From Vulcanimicrobiota bacterium (GTDB taxonomy: Bacteria; Vulcanimicrobiota; Vulcanimicrobiia; Vulcanimicrobiales; Vulcanimicrobiaceae), in contig CAVRQT010000002.1 of the NCBI GenBank assembly GCA_963723515.1, positions 1-64,000 on the forward strand: a stretch of DNA of 64,000 bases, written 5' to 3'. A program made the translations under genes and the position numbers. The notes beneath the pieces were generated by a model that saw only the letters and a list, made by a program, of their open reading frames with translations, made no database searches and was not told the origin of the DNA. Position 1 is the first letter of the stretch. Each line of letters starts with the position of its first letter. Shown piece after piece: positions 18,766-24,596 of this stretch.

Positions 18766-20082
18766 TTATTTCGCGACGCGGCCCGGGATGAGGCCGCGGT
18801 GGTTGAGCACAAGCTCCGCGAAGAGCGCATTCGGCCACGCGAAATCATCGCGCGTGTACGCCTCGGGCCAATCCGCGTTGAACGATTCGTGCAGAACGTG
18901 GTCGCCTATGTCGGACGCCGCTATGAATCCCAACACCCGCTTGACCTCATCTTGGTCTGTCGAAGTCAGCGCTTCCATGACGAGCGACAGCGGCCAGATA
19001 TAGCCGTGCGGCGTGTGTTGGCTGCCGATGCCTTCCGCGTACTTGCCCCGATAGAAATACGGATTGCGGGGAGAGAGGACGAAGCTGCGCGTGTTCTTGT
19101 ACACCGCGTCACGCGCTCCGACATACCCGTAGTATGGGATGGAAAGCAGCGAGGGAATGTTCGCGTCGTCGATCAGCAGCGAATGGCCGTGGCCGTCGAT
19201 TTCGTACGAGTACATCTTTCCGAAGCCGGCTAAGTTGACGGTGCCATATTGCTCGATGGCGCGCTGAATTTGCACGCCTAAGCCCCATGCGTTCTGCCCG
19301 AGTTTCTGGTTATGGTAGACGTTGCGCTCGATTTCGGTCAGATCGCGTAAGACGACGACCGCAAACATATTGTCCGGGATATTGTAATGGTAGTACGCGG
19401 GATCGTCCGACGGCCGAAATGCCGTCCACACCAAACCGGTATAACCCACGGGTCTGCCCTGACCGTCGTTTGCGAGCTCGGGATGCCGGTAATGCGACCG
19501 GCTTGCATGATGCTGTTCGGTGCGCAGCACGCCCATGACGCGGTCGAATGCGCGCTCGACTTCCGGCGTAAAGACCGACCGGTCGCCGCTCGCTTTCCAA
19601 TAGAGGTAAGAGAACCAAATCGGATAGAGCAGCGAATCCATCTCGAATTTGCGCTCGGCGACCCGATAGTCGAGCGTGAATGCATTCGCGTAGGGATCGA
19701 GGAGAATGTACTTCGCCTGTCGCGAGATCACGCCGCGCAGCGTCTCGCGCACATCGGAATCGCTCAGCGAAAGCCCGATGTATGGTTTCACCACGGCGCT
19801 GGCGTCACGCAGCCATTCCGCATCGATGTCGCCGGTCGAAACAAAGGTCGTTCCATCTCGCTCGATGATTGCGTGGCGGCTATACGCTTCGTCGTACGCA
19901 TTTTGGTAAAGACTCCATAGCGTCGAAGCGACCGCGCTGGACATTTGGTTGGTATGCGTGCTCGTTGTGGCGTTCGAAGCGCCTACGGCCGGGAGGCCGG
20001 ACAATAGCAAACCAAGCGCGAGGACAAGCGCGGCGCTTCGGGCGCTATACATTACGCGGTTCTTTTTCGCAAATTGAACCAT
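18766..20082 (-). CDS. Secreted glycoside hydrolase family 125 (exo-alpha-1,6-mannosidase-like)
   Basis: TGDIDAEWLRD, ERKFEMDS, FRPSDD, DDANIPSLL, GIGSQHTP, FAWPN. Confidence 0.9.
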   Translation of the reverse strand: MVQFAKKNRVMYSARSAALVLALGLLLSGLPAVGASNATTSTHTNQMSSAVASTLWSLYQNAYDEAYSRHAIIERDGTTFVSTGDIDAEWLRDASAVVKPYIGLSLSDSDVRETLRGVISRQAKYILLDPYANAFTLDYRVAERKFEMDSLLYPIWFSYLYWKASGDRSVFTPEVERAFDRVMGVLRTEQHHASRSHYRHPELANDGQGRPVGYTGLVWTAFRPSDDPAYYHYNIPDNMFAVVVLRDLTEIERNVYHNQKLGQNAWGLGVQIQRAIEQYGTVNLAGFGKMYSYEIDGHGHSLLIDDANIPSLLSIPYYGYVGARDAVYKNTRSFVLSPRNPYFYRGKYAEGIGSQHTPHGYIWPLSLVMEALTSTDQDEVKRVLGFIAASDIGDHVLHESFNADWPEAYTRDDFAWPNALFAELVLNHRGLIPGRVAK

Positions 20083-20163
20083 TGCCTGCCCGTAGAGAGT
20101 TTATAGAATCGCCCGCTTTGGGCATAATTCGGAAACCAGCGCACTGTAAAACGGAGCACGCAC

Positions 20164-20919
20164 ATCACTCGACTGCTGGTATCGTTCCTTACGCCGATCG
20201 CACTACTGGCGATCGTTGCTCCTGCCATTGGCGATCAGCGGTACGTTCTCTCAGGCTTCGATCGCTATCGCGTTGGCTCAGGTGATCTCAACACCAACAT
20301 CACCTATGCCGGTAAGGAGACGCTCAGCGTCAACAGCCGAGGGCGCACAAAGCGCTACGCCGCTCGCGCAACGTACACTCGAAGCGCTGAAGGCGGCCGC
20401 ACGCACAGTAGCGCTTCATTTTCCGCAACGCTGCTGCCGAGCGGAGAGCAACGTGACGAATCCAACGGTGATCCGAACTATCTAACCGTTCTCAACCAGC
20501 CGTTCTCGATTCAACTCGATTCGCAGACGCTTGCGGATCTGGCGCATCTGCAGGGCGGCGTGCCGTTTGATTTTCCGTCGCCTGTGACGGGCGGCACGCT
20601 GCGTGGGTTTCTGCGCCGCGGCCCATCGGGACGCGTTGCGGGCCGGCAGGCGCTCGGCGTTTCTTTCGATGCACGAGGCGCGATGCGCGGACCGTTGCCG
20701 GACCATCCAGACATGATTCTCAGCGGAACGATCACGATGCGCGGGATCGCCTACTACGAGTTGAAGACGTCGTTGCTGCTGGCGCTCGATGCGACGCTGA
20801 CGATCCAAGGAAAGCTCGATAATGCGCGGCAGATGACGCCGGTAACGATCGTTTACAAACGCTCGATCACCGCCGAACGTAATGCTTCGGCGATGAACGA
20901 AGCCGCTACACCGCGGTAG
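20164..20919 (+). CDS. Secreted hypothetical beta-rich protein; true start well upstream of the track's 20560 (SD followed by ATC)
   Basis: Frame open from 20128 to 20919; signal-peptide-like ITRLLVSFLTPIALLAIVAPAIG after GGAG-N7-ATC. Confidence 0.6.
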   Translation: MTRLLVSFLTPIALLAIVAPAIGDQRYVLSGFDRYRVGSGDLNTNITYAGKETLSVNSRGRTKRYAARATYTRSAEGGRTHSSASFSATLLPSGEQRDESNGDPNYLTVLNQPFSIQLDSQTLADLAHLQGGVPFDFPSPVTGGTLRGFLRRGPSGRVAGRQALGVSFDARGAMRGPLPDHPDMILSGTITMRGIAYYELKTSLLLALDATLTIQGKLDNARQMTPVTIVYKRSITAERNASAMNEAATPR

Positions 20920-21313
20920 CTTGTCCGACGAGCTCCACTTCGATCGGATGTTTGAAGGGAACCTCGTCCATGTGAATGAGCTCGGTGAACGCCAAATGAT
21001 TCTGATGGCAGTCGATCAATTCTTGAATTCCCCGTTTGACGCTGCCCGTCGCCTCGATGTATTTGTTGAGCTTCTTCGTAAAGTACGAACGCGGATCGCG
21101 TAGCACTTTCGCATAGTACGGGTCGTCGGTCAAACCGGCAGCACTGATTCCGTCTCTAGGAACGAGCCAAACAAACGAAGGATCTTCTCCGCTGCGACAA
21201 CCGATCAGCACTAAGGGTATCGCGCGCGACGATCCAAGCGTCGGCACGAAGCTGCACATCGTGTAAGCATCGAAGATAATCTCGTTCGGTTCGATCGCTG
21301 TTCCCACGTTCAA
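20906..21313 (-). CDS. Hypothetical protein
   Basis: 135-aa ORF with a strong AGGAGG SD before TTG. Confidence 0.65.
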   Translation of the reverse strand: MNVGTAIEPNEIIFDAYTMCSFVPTLGSSRAIPLVLIGCRSGEDPSFVWLVPRDGISAAGLTDDPYYAKVLRDPRSYFTKKLNKYIEATGSVKRGIQELIDCHQNHLAFTELIHMDEVPFKHPIEVELVGQATAV

Positions 21314-21330
21314 GCATCCTCCTAGAAGAC

Positions 21331-21364
21331 AAAAAACCGCTCGGCTTTATGTTGCCGAACGGTT
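21331..21364 (-). terminator. Intrinsic terminator-like hairpin in the 5' leader of the 21313 gene
   Basis: Minus strand AACCGTTCGGC-N8-GCCGAGCGGTT-TTTT just upstream of the SD. Confidence 0.55.
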
Positions 21365-21528
21365 CAAATTCATTTTTCTTTCGCGCCGCTTCCAGGCGTT
21401 GGCGTCATGGCCGCTAATTCGCGGAGCGCTCGATGCGGGACCTGCGGGGCATGTGTGAAACCCTAGGCTCGCACGGCGGTGTTGGGACGCTTATGACCGC
21501 GCTCGCGCCCCTGCAAAGGGAGTATATC

Positions 21529-22152
21529 GTGCCTTCTTCGGTGCATCGGCCGGCGCGTAAGCGAGCGCCAAAGCCGGTGCCGAGCACACAGAACTTCGAG
21601 TCGATCGTTGCGGAGTACCAGCGGCGCCTCTACGGCTTTGCCCTGCGCATGACCGGCAATCGCGAAGATGCCGAGGAGATCGTCCAGGATGCGTTCGTGC
21701 GCGCGTACCGCGCGCTCGGCAAGATGTCGCCTCAACAACGCGCTGAGCTTCGGCTGCAGCCGTGGCTCTACACGATCACGCTGAATGTAACGCGTAATCG
21801 GTTGCGCTCGAAGAAACCCGCAAGCGTCGCGCTCGATGCGCTGGCTGATCCCGACGCGATCTTGCGTGGATCGCACGAAGGGCCGGCACGCCCTGAATCG
21901 ATCGTTGAGCGAAGCGCTGACATGGCGTTGGTGGAACGTGCGTTGCTCGGCTTGCCCGTGCATCTGCGCGCCGCGGCGACGTTGCGGTTCATCGAAGGCC
22001 GCAGCCATCCCGAAATCGCGGAGATCCTCAACCAGCCGATCGGCACGGTCAAGTCGCACGTCCACCGCGCGGTCAGGATTTTGCGTCGCGTTCTCGGGCC
22101 GCAAATCGGCCGAACCCTCACACAAGGAGCCGCCGTCCATGCGATGTCGTGA
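21529..22152 (+). CDS. ECF sigma-70 factor (alternative start 21493)
   Basis: DAEEIVQDAF, WLYTITLN, EIAEIL..PIGTVKSHVHRA; GGGAG SD before GTG 21529. Confidence 0.92.
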   Translation: MPSSVHRPARKRAPKPVPSTQNFESIVAEYQRRLYGFALRMTGNREDAEEIVQDAFVRAYRALGKMSPQQRAELRLQPWLYTITLNVTRNRLRSKKPASVALDALADPDAILRGSHEGPARPESIVERSADMALVERALLGLPVHLRAAATLRFIEGRSHPEIAEILNQPIGTVKSHVHRAVRILRRVLGPQIGRTLTQGAAVHAMS

Positions 22153-22900
22153 AGTAGAAGCGCTGTGGGATGAGGTCCGCAGCGCGGAAATGCCCTCGTT
22201 GCGCGAAGCCGTCAAGCTGCATCTGCGCAACTGCCCACCTTGCCAAGATCTCTACGAAGAATATGAAGGCGTCGCGTACTGCCTCTCTTGCCTCGAAGTC
22301 CCCGAACCGTCGTGCGATCTGGCGAAGAAAATCGTGGAGCACATCGCCCAAATCCGGCAACGCATGCGCAGCGAACCGCTCTTTCTGACGAGTTTGGGCT
22401 CGCCGCTGGGCCGGCTGCACATCGGCTACAACGGCGTCCGGATCGCTTTCGTCGGACTGGACCGCGGCGAAGCGCTCAAGGCGCTACGGGCTCGCATCCA
22501 AGGCCGTCTCAAACGGGATGTGCTTCTTCAGGAGTATCCTCCGACGTGGGTGCGCCGCATGTTCGCGCGATTCTTCAAGACCTGGCACGTCGATGACGAA
22601 CACGTCGATCTGAGCGACCTCACGCCGTTCGAGCAAGCGGCACTCAAGAAAGCCGCGCAGATTCCGCCCGGCCAAGTTCGCTCGTACACATGGGTGGCTC
22701 GCGAGATCGGCCGTCCGAAGGCCGCGCGCGCCGTCGGTCAGGTCATGGCACGCAATCCGCTGCCGCTCCTCTTCCCCTGCCACCGCGTCGTCGACTCGGC
22801 AGGCCACTTGCATAACTACGGATACGGGCTGGAAATGAAAGCGCGCATTCTCGAGATGGAAGGGTACCGCGGCAGCAGCGGGAACAACGAACGCTTGTAA
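22139..22900 (+). CDS. Zinc-finger anti-sigma (ZAS) domain fused to methylated-DNA-protein-cysteine methyltransferase (Ogt/MGMT)
   Basis: C3-x24-H28xxxC32xxC35 at the N-terminus; IPPGQVRSY, AARAVG, NPLP and PCHRVV at the C-terminus; AAGGAG SD; overlaps the sigma stop. Confidence 0.88.
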   Translation: MRCREVEALWDEVRSAEMPSLREAVKLHLRNCPPCQDLYEEYEGVAYCLSCLEVPEPSCDLAKKIVEHIAQIRQRMRSEPLFLTSLGSPLGRLHIGYNGVRIAFVGLDRGEALKALRARIQGRLKRDVLLQEYPPTWVRRMFARFFKTWHVDDEHVDLSDLTPFEQAALKKAAQIPPGQVRSYTWVAREIGRPKAARAVGQVMARNPLPLLFPCHRVVDSAGHLHNYGYGLEMKARILEMEGYRGSSGNNERL

Positions 22901-23065
22901 TACGTCCGCGGTCCCTCCAGAGTTAGAGACGAGCGGAGGATAACAGCCGGACAAGGGAGGTGATCATCGTAACGAGTGACAGTTGTAAACTATCAAAGAC
23001 TACGATGATTGGGGGTGCGAGCACCTAAAGCTCGCAAAGTCTACCTGAAAAACTCTCTCGTGCCG

Positions 23066-23089
23066 CCCTTCGACAAGCTCAGGGTGACA
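23066..23089. repeat. REP-like short palindromic unit CCCTTCGACAAGCTCAGGGTGACA
   Basis: Resembles a widespread intergenic repeat motif (recognised from memory); single copy here. Confidence 0.45.
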
Positions 23090-23090
23090 C

Positions 23091-23116
23091 AAGCCGGCTG
23101 GTGTCGGCTTTTTTTT
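23091..23116 (+). terminator. Rho-independent terminator
   Basis: AAGCCGGC-TGGT-GTCGGCTT followed by a T run. Confidence 0.85.
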
Positions 23117-23183
23117 GTTATTGCGGCATTCTTTTATTTGCTGTCAAGGGACCAACGCTAAGGCCACCTAAAGTGAGTCGTCC

Positions 23184-24596
23184 TTGAGCGACCCACGAAT
23201 AGCGGCGATCCCGGACGTTCACGGCCACGCTAAGGGCGAGCACAAACCATATGCTGAAGAACGGCCGATCGCGTACTCCGCGCGCATGCTTTTTCTTTGG
23301 TTCTACCATGCTTGCCGGCGCACGGCGCCGCGCTTCTTGATGGTCAGCGACCACAGCAACTATCTGACGTTCGAAGACCCTGCCGCGGTCAACTTGGTCC
23401 GCCGTGCGCTCAAACTGGCTGAAGCCGGCGATCTATACGGTGCCGCTGAAACCGCCGGTGTCGACGTCGCTCACGCCGCCGTCGTCTCTGACGGCCTGCG
23501 CAAAGGCATGCGGTTCTCAATCGGCGCCGAGGTCGACAACGATCCGCGCGCCCGGCCGGACGCGCAGAATATCGTTGATGCGATGCGGCCGGACGCGATC
23601 GTTCGTTCCGTTCACTTCATCACGATCGAGCATCCCGAAAAAGGCCCGGACTTTCAGTGGCCGTTCGACCGGCCGGAATTTGTCTCGCTCTTCGACCACG
23701 TCGGCACGGATCGCACTTGGCAGCTGTATGTCGAGACGCTCTTTGATGCGCTCGACAAACTGCCGACGCATATTGTCGGACACTTTTACGTTCCCGGAAC
23801 CTTCGGCAAGTGGCCGGCCGTCGCGACGCTCGAGAAGTATGAGAACCAACTGCTCGACCTCTGTGCGCGGCGCGGGCTCGCCGTCGAGATCAACTCACGA
23901 TTCCTGTATCGCGATCATCCTGAAGATCTTAAGAAGAAGTATCTTGATGCCAATCGCCGTTTGATTCGCAAGGCGAAAGCGAAAGGCGTCGGCATCGCGA
24001 TCGGTTCCGATGCGCACAGCCCAAAAGACCTGGGTGCGGGCTTCGGGCAAATTTTGAAGCTTCTGGACGAAGCACGCGTCAACGAGCTGATCTTCCCGCT
24101 TGCAGGGCGTCTGGCGCGCGTTGCTTTGCGCGCCACGAAGGAGCATCTCGAACGGCGCGCCGCGGTGTCGGTTGCGCCGCAGGTCGGCAGCAGCATCACA
24201 GGATTCGGGCGTGCGGAGCTGGCCGAACTGCAAATCAAAACTCCGCGCCGCGGCGGCCCGCGTCGAGCAACCGCTCCGGCACGCCGTGCGAAAGCTACCT
24301 CCAAACGCGGCGCTAAGAAGCCGGTACGCAAGGCGAAGGCAGCAGCACGAAAGCCTGCCGGTCGTAAAGCCGCCACAAAGCGGCCGCGTCGCGGCGCGCC
24401 GGTCCGGCGCACACTGAAGAAAGCTAGCCGCAAGAGCACTTCCGCACGCATGAAAAAGTCGAGCCGAAGGCCGGCCGCAAAAAAGAAAGCCGCGCCGAAG
24501 AAGGCGCCGCGCCGCTCGGCGAAAGTCTCTAAAGCGCCCAAACGTTCCACGACCGCTAAGAAAGCGACCAAGAAAAAGAAAGCCCGGCGTCGCTAA
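23184..24596 (+). CDS. PHP-domain phosphoesterase (HisJ/HisPPase-like) with a C-terminal histone H1-like Lys/Arg/Ala/Pro-rich tail
   Basis: DVHGH, SDH, GAEVD, SVH, GH, EINS, GSDAH; last ~120 aa are KKAAPKK-type low complexity. Confidence 0.8.
   Translation: MSDPRIAAIPDVHGHAKGEHKPYAEERPIAYSARMLFLWFYHACRRTAPRFLMVSDHSNYLTFEDPAAVNLVRRALKLAEAGDLYGAAETAGVDVAHAAVVSDGLRKGMRFSIGAEVDNDPRARPDAQNIVDAMRPDAIVRSVHFITIEHPEKGPDFQWPFDRPEFVSLFDHVGTDRTWQLYVETLFDALDKLPTHIVGHFYVPGTFGKWPAVATLEKYENQLLDLCARRGLAVEINSRFLYRDHPEDLKKKYLDANRRLIRKAKAKGVGIAIGSDAHSPKDLGAGFGQILKLLDEARVNELIFPLAGRLARVALRATKEHLERRAAVSVAPQVGSSITGFGRAELAELQIKTPRRGGPRRATAPARRAKATSKRGAKKPVRKAKAAARKPAGRKAATKRPRRGAPVRRTLKKASRKSTSARMKKSSRRPAAKKKAAPKKAPRRSAKVSKAPKRSTTAKKATKKKKARRR

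Follow-up and report, generated by a model that had tools for sequence, protein, structure and literature searches.

Positions 1 to 64,000 of contig CAVRQT010000002.1 (assembly GCA_963723515.1, a Vulcanimicrobiota bacterium) form the stretch of 64,000 nucleotides analyzed here, hereafter the window. It contains two overlapping genes at 21529-22900. The upstream gene encodes a sigma factor of the extracytoplasmic function (ECF) type; the downstream gene encodes a partner protein in which a zinc anti-sigma (ZAS) domain is joined to an O6-alkylguanine alkyltransferase (AGT). As read from the sequences, this is a real, well-conserved sigma/anti-sigma pair in which the predicted anti-sigma factor is a suicide DNA-repair enzyme. 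The anti-sigma role of the partner is probable. Our best explanation of the whole, a self-activated two-gene operon whose anti-sigma/AGT fusion would free the sigma factor upon self-alkylation, has close to an even chance of being correct. The anti-sigma nature of an AGT partner is not in print, as far as our search of the open-access literature reached.

The sigma factor and its partner protein

The sigma protein (207 aa) matched the Pfam models Sigma70_r2 (1.6e-16) and Sigma70_r4_2 (1.5e-14), and no Pfam match was found for region 3. Regions 2 and 4 only, in a protein of about 200 aa, is the layout of the ECF (group 4) sigma factors. In NCBIfam, the protein fell into the sigma70-ECF superfamily (2.3e-27), and the best equivalog models, SigW and RpoE, scored under their own cut-offs; TIGR02937 scored 95.7 bits against a cut-off of 42.9. 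A profile of the sigma factor matched SigW in the PDB (5wuq_A, 9.6e-37). The preliminary description of this DNA had reported an ECF sigma gene overlapping a 253-aa gene; the coordinates and both Pfam matches agree with it. We read the 14-nt overlap between the genes as translational coupling. The positions of all features are collected in Table 1.

A search of 1.84 billion representative sequences returned many proteins of 236-319 aa that aligned with the partner from residue 1 to about residue 243 at 30-37% identity. Thirty-eight such distant sequences make up the alignment used for the counts of invariance. The cysteines of the partner are residues 3, 32, 35, 48, 51, 59, and 214. C3, H28, C32, and C35 are conserved in 100% of 33 orthologues and are invariant in the 38-sequence alignment, down to about 30% identity; together they supply the H-x3-C-x2-C motif and the upstream Cys/His ligand of a ZAS domain. 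The extra cysteines are conserved in part of the orthologues (C48 in 82%, C51 in 73%, C59 in 97%). This signature and the additional cysteines had been listed beforehand, with all positions right. Zinc binding by the N-domain is predicted from these ligands.

A profile of the N-terminal 70-80 residues, made from 20 sequences, matched RsiW in the PDB over residues 1-70, which is the whole domain (6.3e-7), as well as RslA (2.3e-6), ChrR (0.002), DdvA (0.0037), and RsrA (0.44). Homology of the N-domain to class I zinc anti-sigma domains is indicated by these profile matches. The N-domain part of the profile also matches seven other open frames in two unrelated genomes (E 2.8e-9 to 1.4e-5), perhaps further anti-sigma factors. 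In the predicted structure of the partner, the pLDDT is 87.8 over the full length and 88.2 in the N-domain, which has helices at residues 3-14, 19-31, 33-50, and 61-74; the interdomain linker (residues 71-80) has low confidence, with a mean pLDDT of 67. Over 19 residues, the Kyte-Doolittle mean of the partner peaks at 0.73, and we therefore conclude, in agreement with the earlier claim, that the protein has no transmembrane helix.

The remainder of the partner is an AGT. Pfam DNA_binding_1 (PF01035) matched residues 163-242 (1.7e-28) and TIGR00589 matched with 4.3e-25; DNA_binding_1 was found in 38/38 relatives scanned singly, and Methyltransf_1N in 2/38 only. MtOGT (4bhc) was matched with 1.7e-17. 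Both AGT domains are present, because SNAP-tag/hAGT aligns over residues 84-244; the Pfam match, this alignment, and the confidence of the full-length model agree on a two-domain AGT fold. Y183, R197, N206, P213, C214, H215, R216, Y227, and E241 are invariant in the 38 sequences, and the PCHR motif is conserved in 100% of the 33 orthologues. We take the human equivalents of these residues, from the alignment and the usual numbering, to be Tyr114, the Arg128 finger, Asn137, the PCHR acceptor, Tyr158, and Glu172. The acceptor cysteine, the His/Glu relay, the Asn hinge, the Arg finger, and the helix-turn-helix (HTH) Tyr of an AGT can all be assigned. The active site appears intact and alkyl-transfer activity is predicted, so that the complete Ogt/MGMT domain with its acceptor C214, as first described, is borne out. 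Because the catalytic residues are invariant in the 38 sequences, selection seems to have kept the alkyl-transfer chemistry in the fusions. By this measure, the joint conservation of the ZAS ligands and of PCHR is more than chance.

The complex of the sigma factor (33-row alignment) with partner residues 1-82 (38 rows) and a zinc ion was modeled. It scored 0.80 (0.81, 0.80, and 0.80 in the three runs), compared with 0.00 for the best of three controls; in the calibration, that mark was reached by 116/157 solved complexes and by 2/215 mismatched pairs. The runs share at least 83% of their contacts, and the pLDDT of the partner is at least 82. Its contacts join partner residues 7-15 and 40-73 to residues 20-61 in region 2 and 131-194 in region 4 of the sigma factor. 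The model supports an N-domain seated between these two regions, a clamp of the kind that class I anti-sigma domains typically form. Modeling of the pair had been proposed as a check, and it favors binding, with a look-alike complex already solved.

Conservation, promoter, and related modules

The relatives are 40 loci from species-representative genomes, whose source names are Eremiobacterota (Baltobacteraceae/Vulcanimicrobiaceae). Thirty-four of them include the N-terminus of the partner; of the other six, L034 and L038 begin within the AGT gene, and L039 and L041-L043 are distant. A sigma orthologue (69-97% identity) ends at the start of the partner in 34/34 loci with an N-terminus. The overlap is 14 nt in 29 of these 34 loci and 11 nt in one; the other four, L009, L016, L033, and L040, are outside this count. 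The better conserved of the two proteins is the sigma factor (mostly 79-84%, against mostly 61-71% in the partner). Of 81 genomes sampled from the phylum, 25 had a match at E ≤ 1e-40; with this query and threshold, matches were found in 23/23 genomes of the own family, 1/1 of a sister family, and 0/56 of the other families. The pair is thus kept in all assessable loci and in every own-family genome of the sample, which was the neighborhood check suggested at the outset.

Two of these loci deserve a separate remark. In L040 (4001-4731, Eremiobacterota) the pair looks decayed; the frame of the partner ends after 83 aa, and the sigma match is limited to residues 34-161 at 69% identity. L034 is a contig of 2306 nt titled Verrucomicrobiia, in which the AGT part (69% identity) and the neighboring 470-aa gene (74%) are both typical of Eremiobacterota; this contig is probably mis-binned.

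The candidate ECF promoter upstream of the sigma gene had been noted as TGAAAC and GGTGTT, and both were placed exactly. The -35 element GTGAAACC is present in 31/31 aligned upstream regions, and GT[TC] follows GAAAC after 18-20 nt in 30/31, so that the motif is now phylogenetically footprinted. Autoregulatory ECF promoters combine a -35 that contains AAC with a short -10 that contains GT, and GTGAAACC-N18/19-GTT fits this pattern. A conserved ATG lies 9-11 nt past GT[TC] in the aligned regions. In the window this is ATG 21493, and the sigma mRNA may be leaderless or very short-leadered, because this ATG is only 9 nt past the -10 GTT. The block ATGAGCG.GCTCGC at this ATG is conserved at the nucleotide level and is in frame with the sigma gene in nearly all loci; length differences across the region are multiples of three, with the exception of L028, which is out of frame. 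In most relatives the block contains the palindrome GAGCGCGCTC, and it may alternatively be an operator or an RNA hairpin. The sigma factor may start at ATG 21493 or at GTG 21529.

We built a two-block position weight matrix (PWM) from 30 autoregulated promoters and scanned the 2.1-Mb genome with it. Fourteen genomic sites reached at least 14 bits; the operon's own site scored 29.2, and the next sites 19.2, 18.8, and 18.7. The other sites were rejected as targets, as they lie inside open reading frames (ORFs), in the wrong orientation, or before an unrelated 430-aa ORF (C4:30829). The motif occurs once per locus across 268 kb of related loci, where no second promoter site was found, and it was not found upstream of the genome's Ada or GNAT/ATL-like operon. 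No other strong match exists in the genome, and the operon is therefore probably its own main output. The predicted regulon is probably limited to this operon, with the AGT as its main product.

Table 1. Features of the sigma/partner operon in the window.
Feature	Position	Strand	Details
ECF-type promoter (predicted)	21454-21483	+	-35 GTGAAACC (TGAAAC 21456-21461); 19-nt spacer after GAAAC; -10 GGTGTT 21478-21483 (GTT 21481-21483)
Possible N-terminal extension of the sigma ORF	21493-21528	+	Alternative ATG 21493, MTALAPLQREYI; in frame with GTG, 36 nt upstream
ECF sigma factor gene	21529-22152	+	207 aa from GTG start; GGGAG 21518-21522
Sigma stop/partner start overlap	22139-22152	+	14 nt, ATGCGATGTCGTGA
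Partner gene	22139-22900	+	253 aa; ZAS domain and AGT
N-terminal ZAS domain (predicted)	22139-22363	+	Residues 1-75; C3, H28-x3-C32-x2-C35; four helices
AGT N-terminal (ribonuclease-like) domain	22376-22624	+	About residues 80-162; strands 81-107 and helices in the model
AGT C-terminal catalytic/DNA-binding domain	22625-22864	+	PCHRV; C214 codon TGC 22778-22780
Terminator-like hairpin and T-run closing the two-gene operon	23091-23120	+	8-bp stem, 5 GC pairs; consensus scan only

The genome contains three PF01035 matches, namely the fusion gene, a canonical Ada, and an ATL-like protein. The Ada (372 aa) has Ada_Zn_binding (8.8e-28), HTH_18/AraC, and an AGT domain (3.4e-33). The ATL-like protein (172 aa) has no acceptor cysteine, reads IPAHRV in place of the PCHR motif, and stands alone with no anti-sigma domain. 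A claim that the switch is Ada-independent could therefore describe only the pathway and fails for the organism; because the genome encodes canonical Ada, the switch would act beside Ada and not replace it. The canonical Ada and the ATL-like gene are found at C3:638613-641852 (L001) and C3:197455-200673 (L003). The ATL-like gene shares its strand with an upstream 180-aa ORF, which by eye looks like an acetyltransferase, and overlaps the 3' end of that ORF.

Sigma-AGT modules were also found in other phyla. In one Nitrospinota and one Dehalococcoidia locus, an ECF sigma gene directly precedes an AGT of about 300 aa; these AGTs begin with an N-extension that lacks cysteine and carry an Ada-type zinc domain at the C-terminus. 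Of 301 Chloroflexota genomes sampled, 238 matched at E ≤ 1e-30, a threshold that also admits ordinary AGTs. Among the best 29 Chloroflexota loci, an ECF sigma gene abuts the AGT gene upstream on the same strand in 28 (the exception, L062, is a plain AGT); the 29 AGT frames carry PCHR in 29, an Ada-type zinc tail (CxxC[RKT]P) in 25, and HxxxCxxC in one (L050). Ada_Zn_binding was detected in 11/38 of the aligned relatives (best 2.3e-13). Two records from Actinomycetota have the same gene order. In Nonomuraea, the sigma gene is followed by an AGT-Ada_Zn protein. On a plasmid of Streptomyces sp. NBC_01022 (L080, 1617-3633), a gene annotated "RNA polymerase sigma factor" has a 4-nt overlap with the gene of a 280-aa "Ada metal-binding domain-containing protein", which keeps PCHR and the Ada zinc tail and is without the RAVG arginine-finger motif; its AGT part looks degenerate, and an intact, separate MGMT of 185 aa follows it. 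From its sequence, the 280-aa protein looks like a derivative that only senses, with repair left to a separate enzyme. In L044, L050, L066, and L080, the sensor-like AGT is followed by a second, plain one, which fits an output of more AGT. Across these comparisons, the element common to all sigma-linked partners is the alkyl-acceptor protein, and the extra operon gene, where present, is a further AGT.

Known systems and the proposed mechanism

Both proteins have their closest solved relative in the SigW-RsiW pair of Bacillus subtilis (PDB 5WUQ), which is ECF245 in the 2021 classification; like it, the pair described here has a zinc HxxxCxxC anti-sigma domain, as predicted, and would be autoregulated. 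RsiW sits in the membrane, has an extracytoplasmic part, and is eliminated through regulated proteolysis; in contrast, the domain described here is soluble and carries an AGT. The -35 hexamer TGAAAC given for the SigW group in passages of the classification supplement (PMC7826278) is the same as here, whereas the -10 is CGTAT in SigW and GTT, 19 nt after GAAAC, in this operon. The pair also resembles SigR-RsrA of Streptomyces and SigE-ChrR of Rhodobacter in that a ZAS domain, here a predicted one, is soluble and co-transcribed with an ECF sigma factor; passages of the same supplement describe a C-terminal sensor domain in ChrR (PMC7826278). However, the sensors of those proteins are a thiol-zinc site (RsrA) and a cupin domain (ChrR), and their profile similarity to the N-domain is weaker.

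ECF122 (originally defined, reportedly, by Huang et al. 2015) and ECF203 resemble this locus in that an MGMT gene is conserved at +1. In the supplement of Casas-Pastor et al. (2021, NAR), entries for both groups give 100% Actinobacteria, MGMT at +1, and no putative anti-sigma factor; those for ECF203 add Ada_Zn_binding, and those for ECF122 a promoter of CTCAC/CGTCTAC. Passages of a review (PMC8999054) place ECF122 among the groups "without cognate anti-sigma factors", with an unknown mechanism and MGMT as a conserved neighbor; ECF203 is likewise listed with an unknown mechanism. In contrast, the host here belongs to Eremiobacterota, the promoter is GTGAAACC/GTT, and the partner, measured against the descriptions of those groups, contains a complete ZAS domain but lacks the Ada zinc tail. 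The main text of Casas-Pastor et al. (2021) does not mention ECF122 or ECF203, and the string "Eremiobacter" was not found in passages of the classification supplement (PMC7826278). Methyltransferases are unmentioned in passages of a survey of class I anti-sigma factors (PMC7406223), and the word "sigma" is absent from passages of a 2023 review of the AGT family (PMC10779285), which list fusions to EndoV and histone-like domains. As to whether such a pairing has been characterized, which the preliminary description had left undecided, sigma-MGMT pairing is catalogued as ECF122 and ECF203, and a characterization of a sigma-MGMT or sigma/anti-sigma-AGT pairing was not found in the open-access papers searched.

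E. coli Ada also turns irreversible self-alkylation into transcription of repair genes, including its own, and has an AGT with PCHR. It does so with an N-terminal Zn(Cys)4 acceptor of methyl-phosphotriesters and an AraC-type HTH that activates sigma-70 promoters. The fusion, in contrast, has neither an Ada_Zn_binding nor an AraC HTH match in Pfam, and would instead release an ECF sigma factor.

The explanation that we prefer runs as follows. At rest, the N-domain would clamp the sigma factor between regions 2 and 4. Repair of an O6-alkylguanine would irreversibly alkylate the protein's own C214; the alkylated fusion would loosen and probably be degraded, or at least let go, so that one sigma factor would be freed per lesion. 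Free sigma factor would transcribe its own promoter, GTGAAACC-N19-GTT, and fresh sigma factor and anti-sigma/AGT would be made in a coupled ratio, by which the consumed enzyme would be replaced and the response shut off. Alkylation as the trigger is a serious possibility that falls somewhat short of even. That the anti-sigma factor is a consumable damage counter, in which each repair alkylates one molecule and frees one sigma factor and the output equals the repair events, is put forward more tentatively. Zinc binding, alkyl transfer, sigma release after alkylation, proteolysis, and an operon-only regulon are what we infer here. Release by the alkylated C214 is plausible in view of the AGT literature on destabilization after alkylation: passages of the AGT review report that alkylation destabilizes the protein and breaks contacts between the N- and C-domains, with degradation in humans, mice, yeast, and an archaeon (PMC10779285).

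Several points weigh against this explanation. The zf-HC2 model reached only E 0.003 and 18.1 bits on this protein alone, under the Pfam cut-off of 22.2; of the two Pfam domains that the preliminary description expected, DNA_binding_1 was recovered here and zf-HC2 was detected in relatives (23/38 scanned singly, at E ≤ 0.01, best 5.5e-8). A Foldseek search of the PDB with the isolated N-domain model returned nothing at E ≤ 0.001; the top entry was RsiW, with E 1.2 and TM 0.41-0.47. The score of the modeled complex may partly be memory, because the pair resembles the solved SigW-RsiW, and the self-made alignments and the zinc ion riding along depart from the set-up in which that score was calibrated. 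The regulon may be wider than predicted, because the negative result of the PWM comes from training on autoregulated promoters only. The canonical Ada is already available for an adaptive response, and methylated E. coli Ada is stable. Finally, passages of the AGT review state that the extent of degradation after alkylation in other organisms, bacterial AGTs included, is not established (PMC10779285).

Four alternatives were considered. The first is a thiol switch of the RsrA type, in which the zinc-thiolate of C3, C32, and C35, perhaps with C48, C51, and C59, would be oxidized or S-alkylated, zinc would be lost, and the sigma factor freed, with the AGT as mere cargo. The invariant ZAS ligands and the partial conservation of the extra cysteines speak for it, and soluble class I anti-sigma factors are enriched in zinc motifs (about 72%), which passages of the survey link to redox sensing (PMC7406223). 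However, the closest solved relatives of the N-domain are RsiW and RslA, with RsrA reaching only E 0.44, and all AGT catalytic residues are strictly conserved in the fusions. Moreover, in the best 29 Chloroflexota loci the 28 sigma-linked partners keep PCHR and a single one has HxxxCxxC, and on these grounds the element shared by the module is the AGT and not the zinc thiolate. We regard a thiol switch as unlikely.

Pure negative feedback without any sensing of damage would have the fusion titrate the sigma factor to set the level of AGT, with induction through proteolysis, growth phase, or the like. Translational coupling, a self-activated operon with no other strong target, and a canonical Ada for the inducible response would all suit such an arrangement. 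It leaves unexplained, however, the second alkyl-acceptor module of partners in other phyla, seen as Ada_Zn_binding in 11/38 relatives and as the zinc tail in 25/29 of the best Chloroflexota loci, and a self-activating sigma factor with a 1:1 inhibitor would stay silent absent a releasing signal. This makes feedback of this kind rather less likely still.

A third possibility is that binding of the lesion is itself the signal. Engagement of damaged DNA, by base flipping or cooperative binding, would shift or sequester the fusion and free the sigma factor reversibly. The DNA-binding residues are intact (the R197 finger and Y183), and the low-confidence linker would allow the domains to move; invariance of the catalytic Cys, His, and Glu would, however, be needless, and the genome's Cys-less ATL-like protein has no anti-sigma domain. 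We consider lesion binding improbable. Lastly, the partner could be no anti-sigma factor at all, its zinc module being no more than an addition to an Ogt that serves structure or DNA binding, and the gene overlap mere operon packing, as the sub-threshold zf-HC2 score, the lack of a significant Foldseek match, and a structural zinc site in the N-domain of human AGT (in passages of PMC10779285) would allow, but the profile matches to RsiW, RslA, and ChrR, zf-HC2 in 23/38 relatives, the modeled complex (0.80 against 0.00 for controls), a sigma gene upstream in 34/34 loci, and the same gene order in three other phyla make this very improbable.

Among alternative sigma factors, those of the ECF type form the largest family, and for several of its groups no regulator is known. 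This locus indicates that a complete zinc anti-sigma domain, one that by prediction holds the sigma factor, can be part of an MGMT partner, and it gives ECF122 and ECF203 a concrete, testable mechanism. If release by self-alkylation is true, it would be a new mode of ECF input, in which turnover of a suicide enzyme takes the place of proteolysis, redox, or partner switching. Such a switch would amount to a sigma-based analogue of Ada and to a second way, besides Ada, in which irreversible self-alkylation leads to gene expression. It would offer a simple means to replace a single-use enzyme in step with its consumption, and would explain ECF122, ECF203, and the AGT-Ada-zinc partners of Chloroflexota, Nitrospinota, and Actinomycetota.

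Neighboring genes and other observations

The flanking genes, encoding proteins of 135 aa and 470 aa and an EF-G-like protein, are syntenic in 26-31 loci. We rejected this neighborhood as a functional clue, since all the syntenic loci belong to close relatives. No Pfam match was found for the 135-aa protein or, at E ≤ 0.001, for the 470-aa protein. The 470-aa protein (23184-24596 in the window) is kept downstream in 31 related loci and has a long basic tail rich in Lys, Ala, and Pro. In many relatives a 235-aa ORF lies between the AGT gene and the 470-aa gene (e.g., L019, 4765-5472); by eye, it resembles a pyroglutamyl peptidase.

An Rfam scan of 20000-24000 gave a single match at chance level. 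The 135-aa gene is divergent (20906-21313), and a GC-rich hairpin with a T-run lies on the minus strand at 21334-21365, immediately upstream of the ribosome-binding site of this gene. A similar hairpin (AAAAACCGC.CGGC...GCCGAACGG) is present in 10/31 aligned upstream regions; the remaining regions differ or end at the 260-nt limit.

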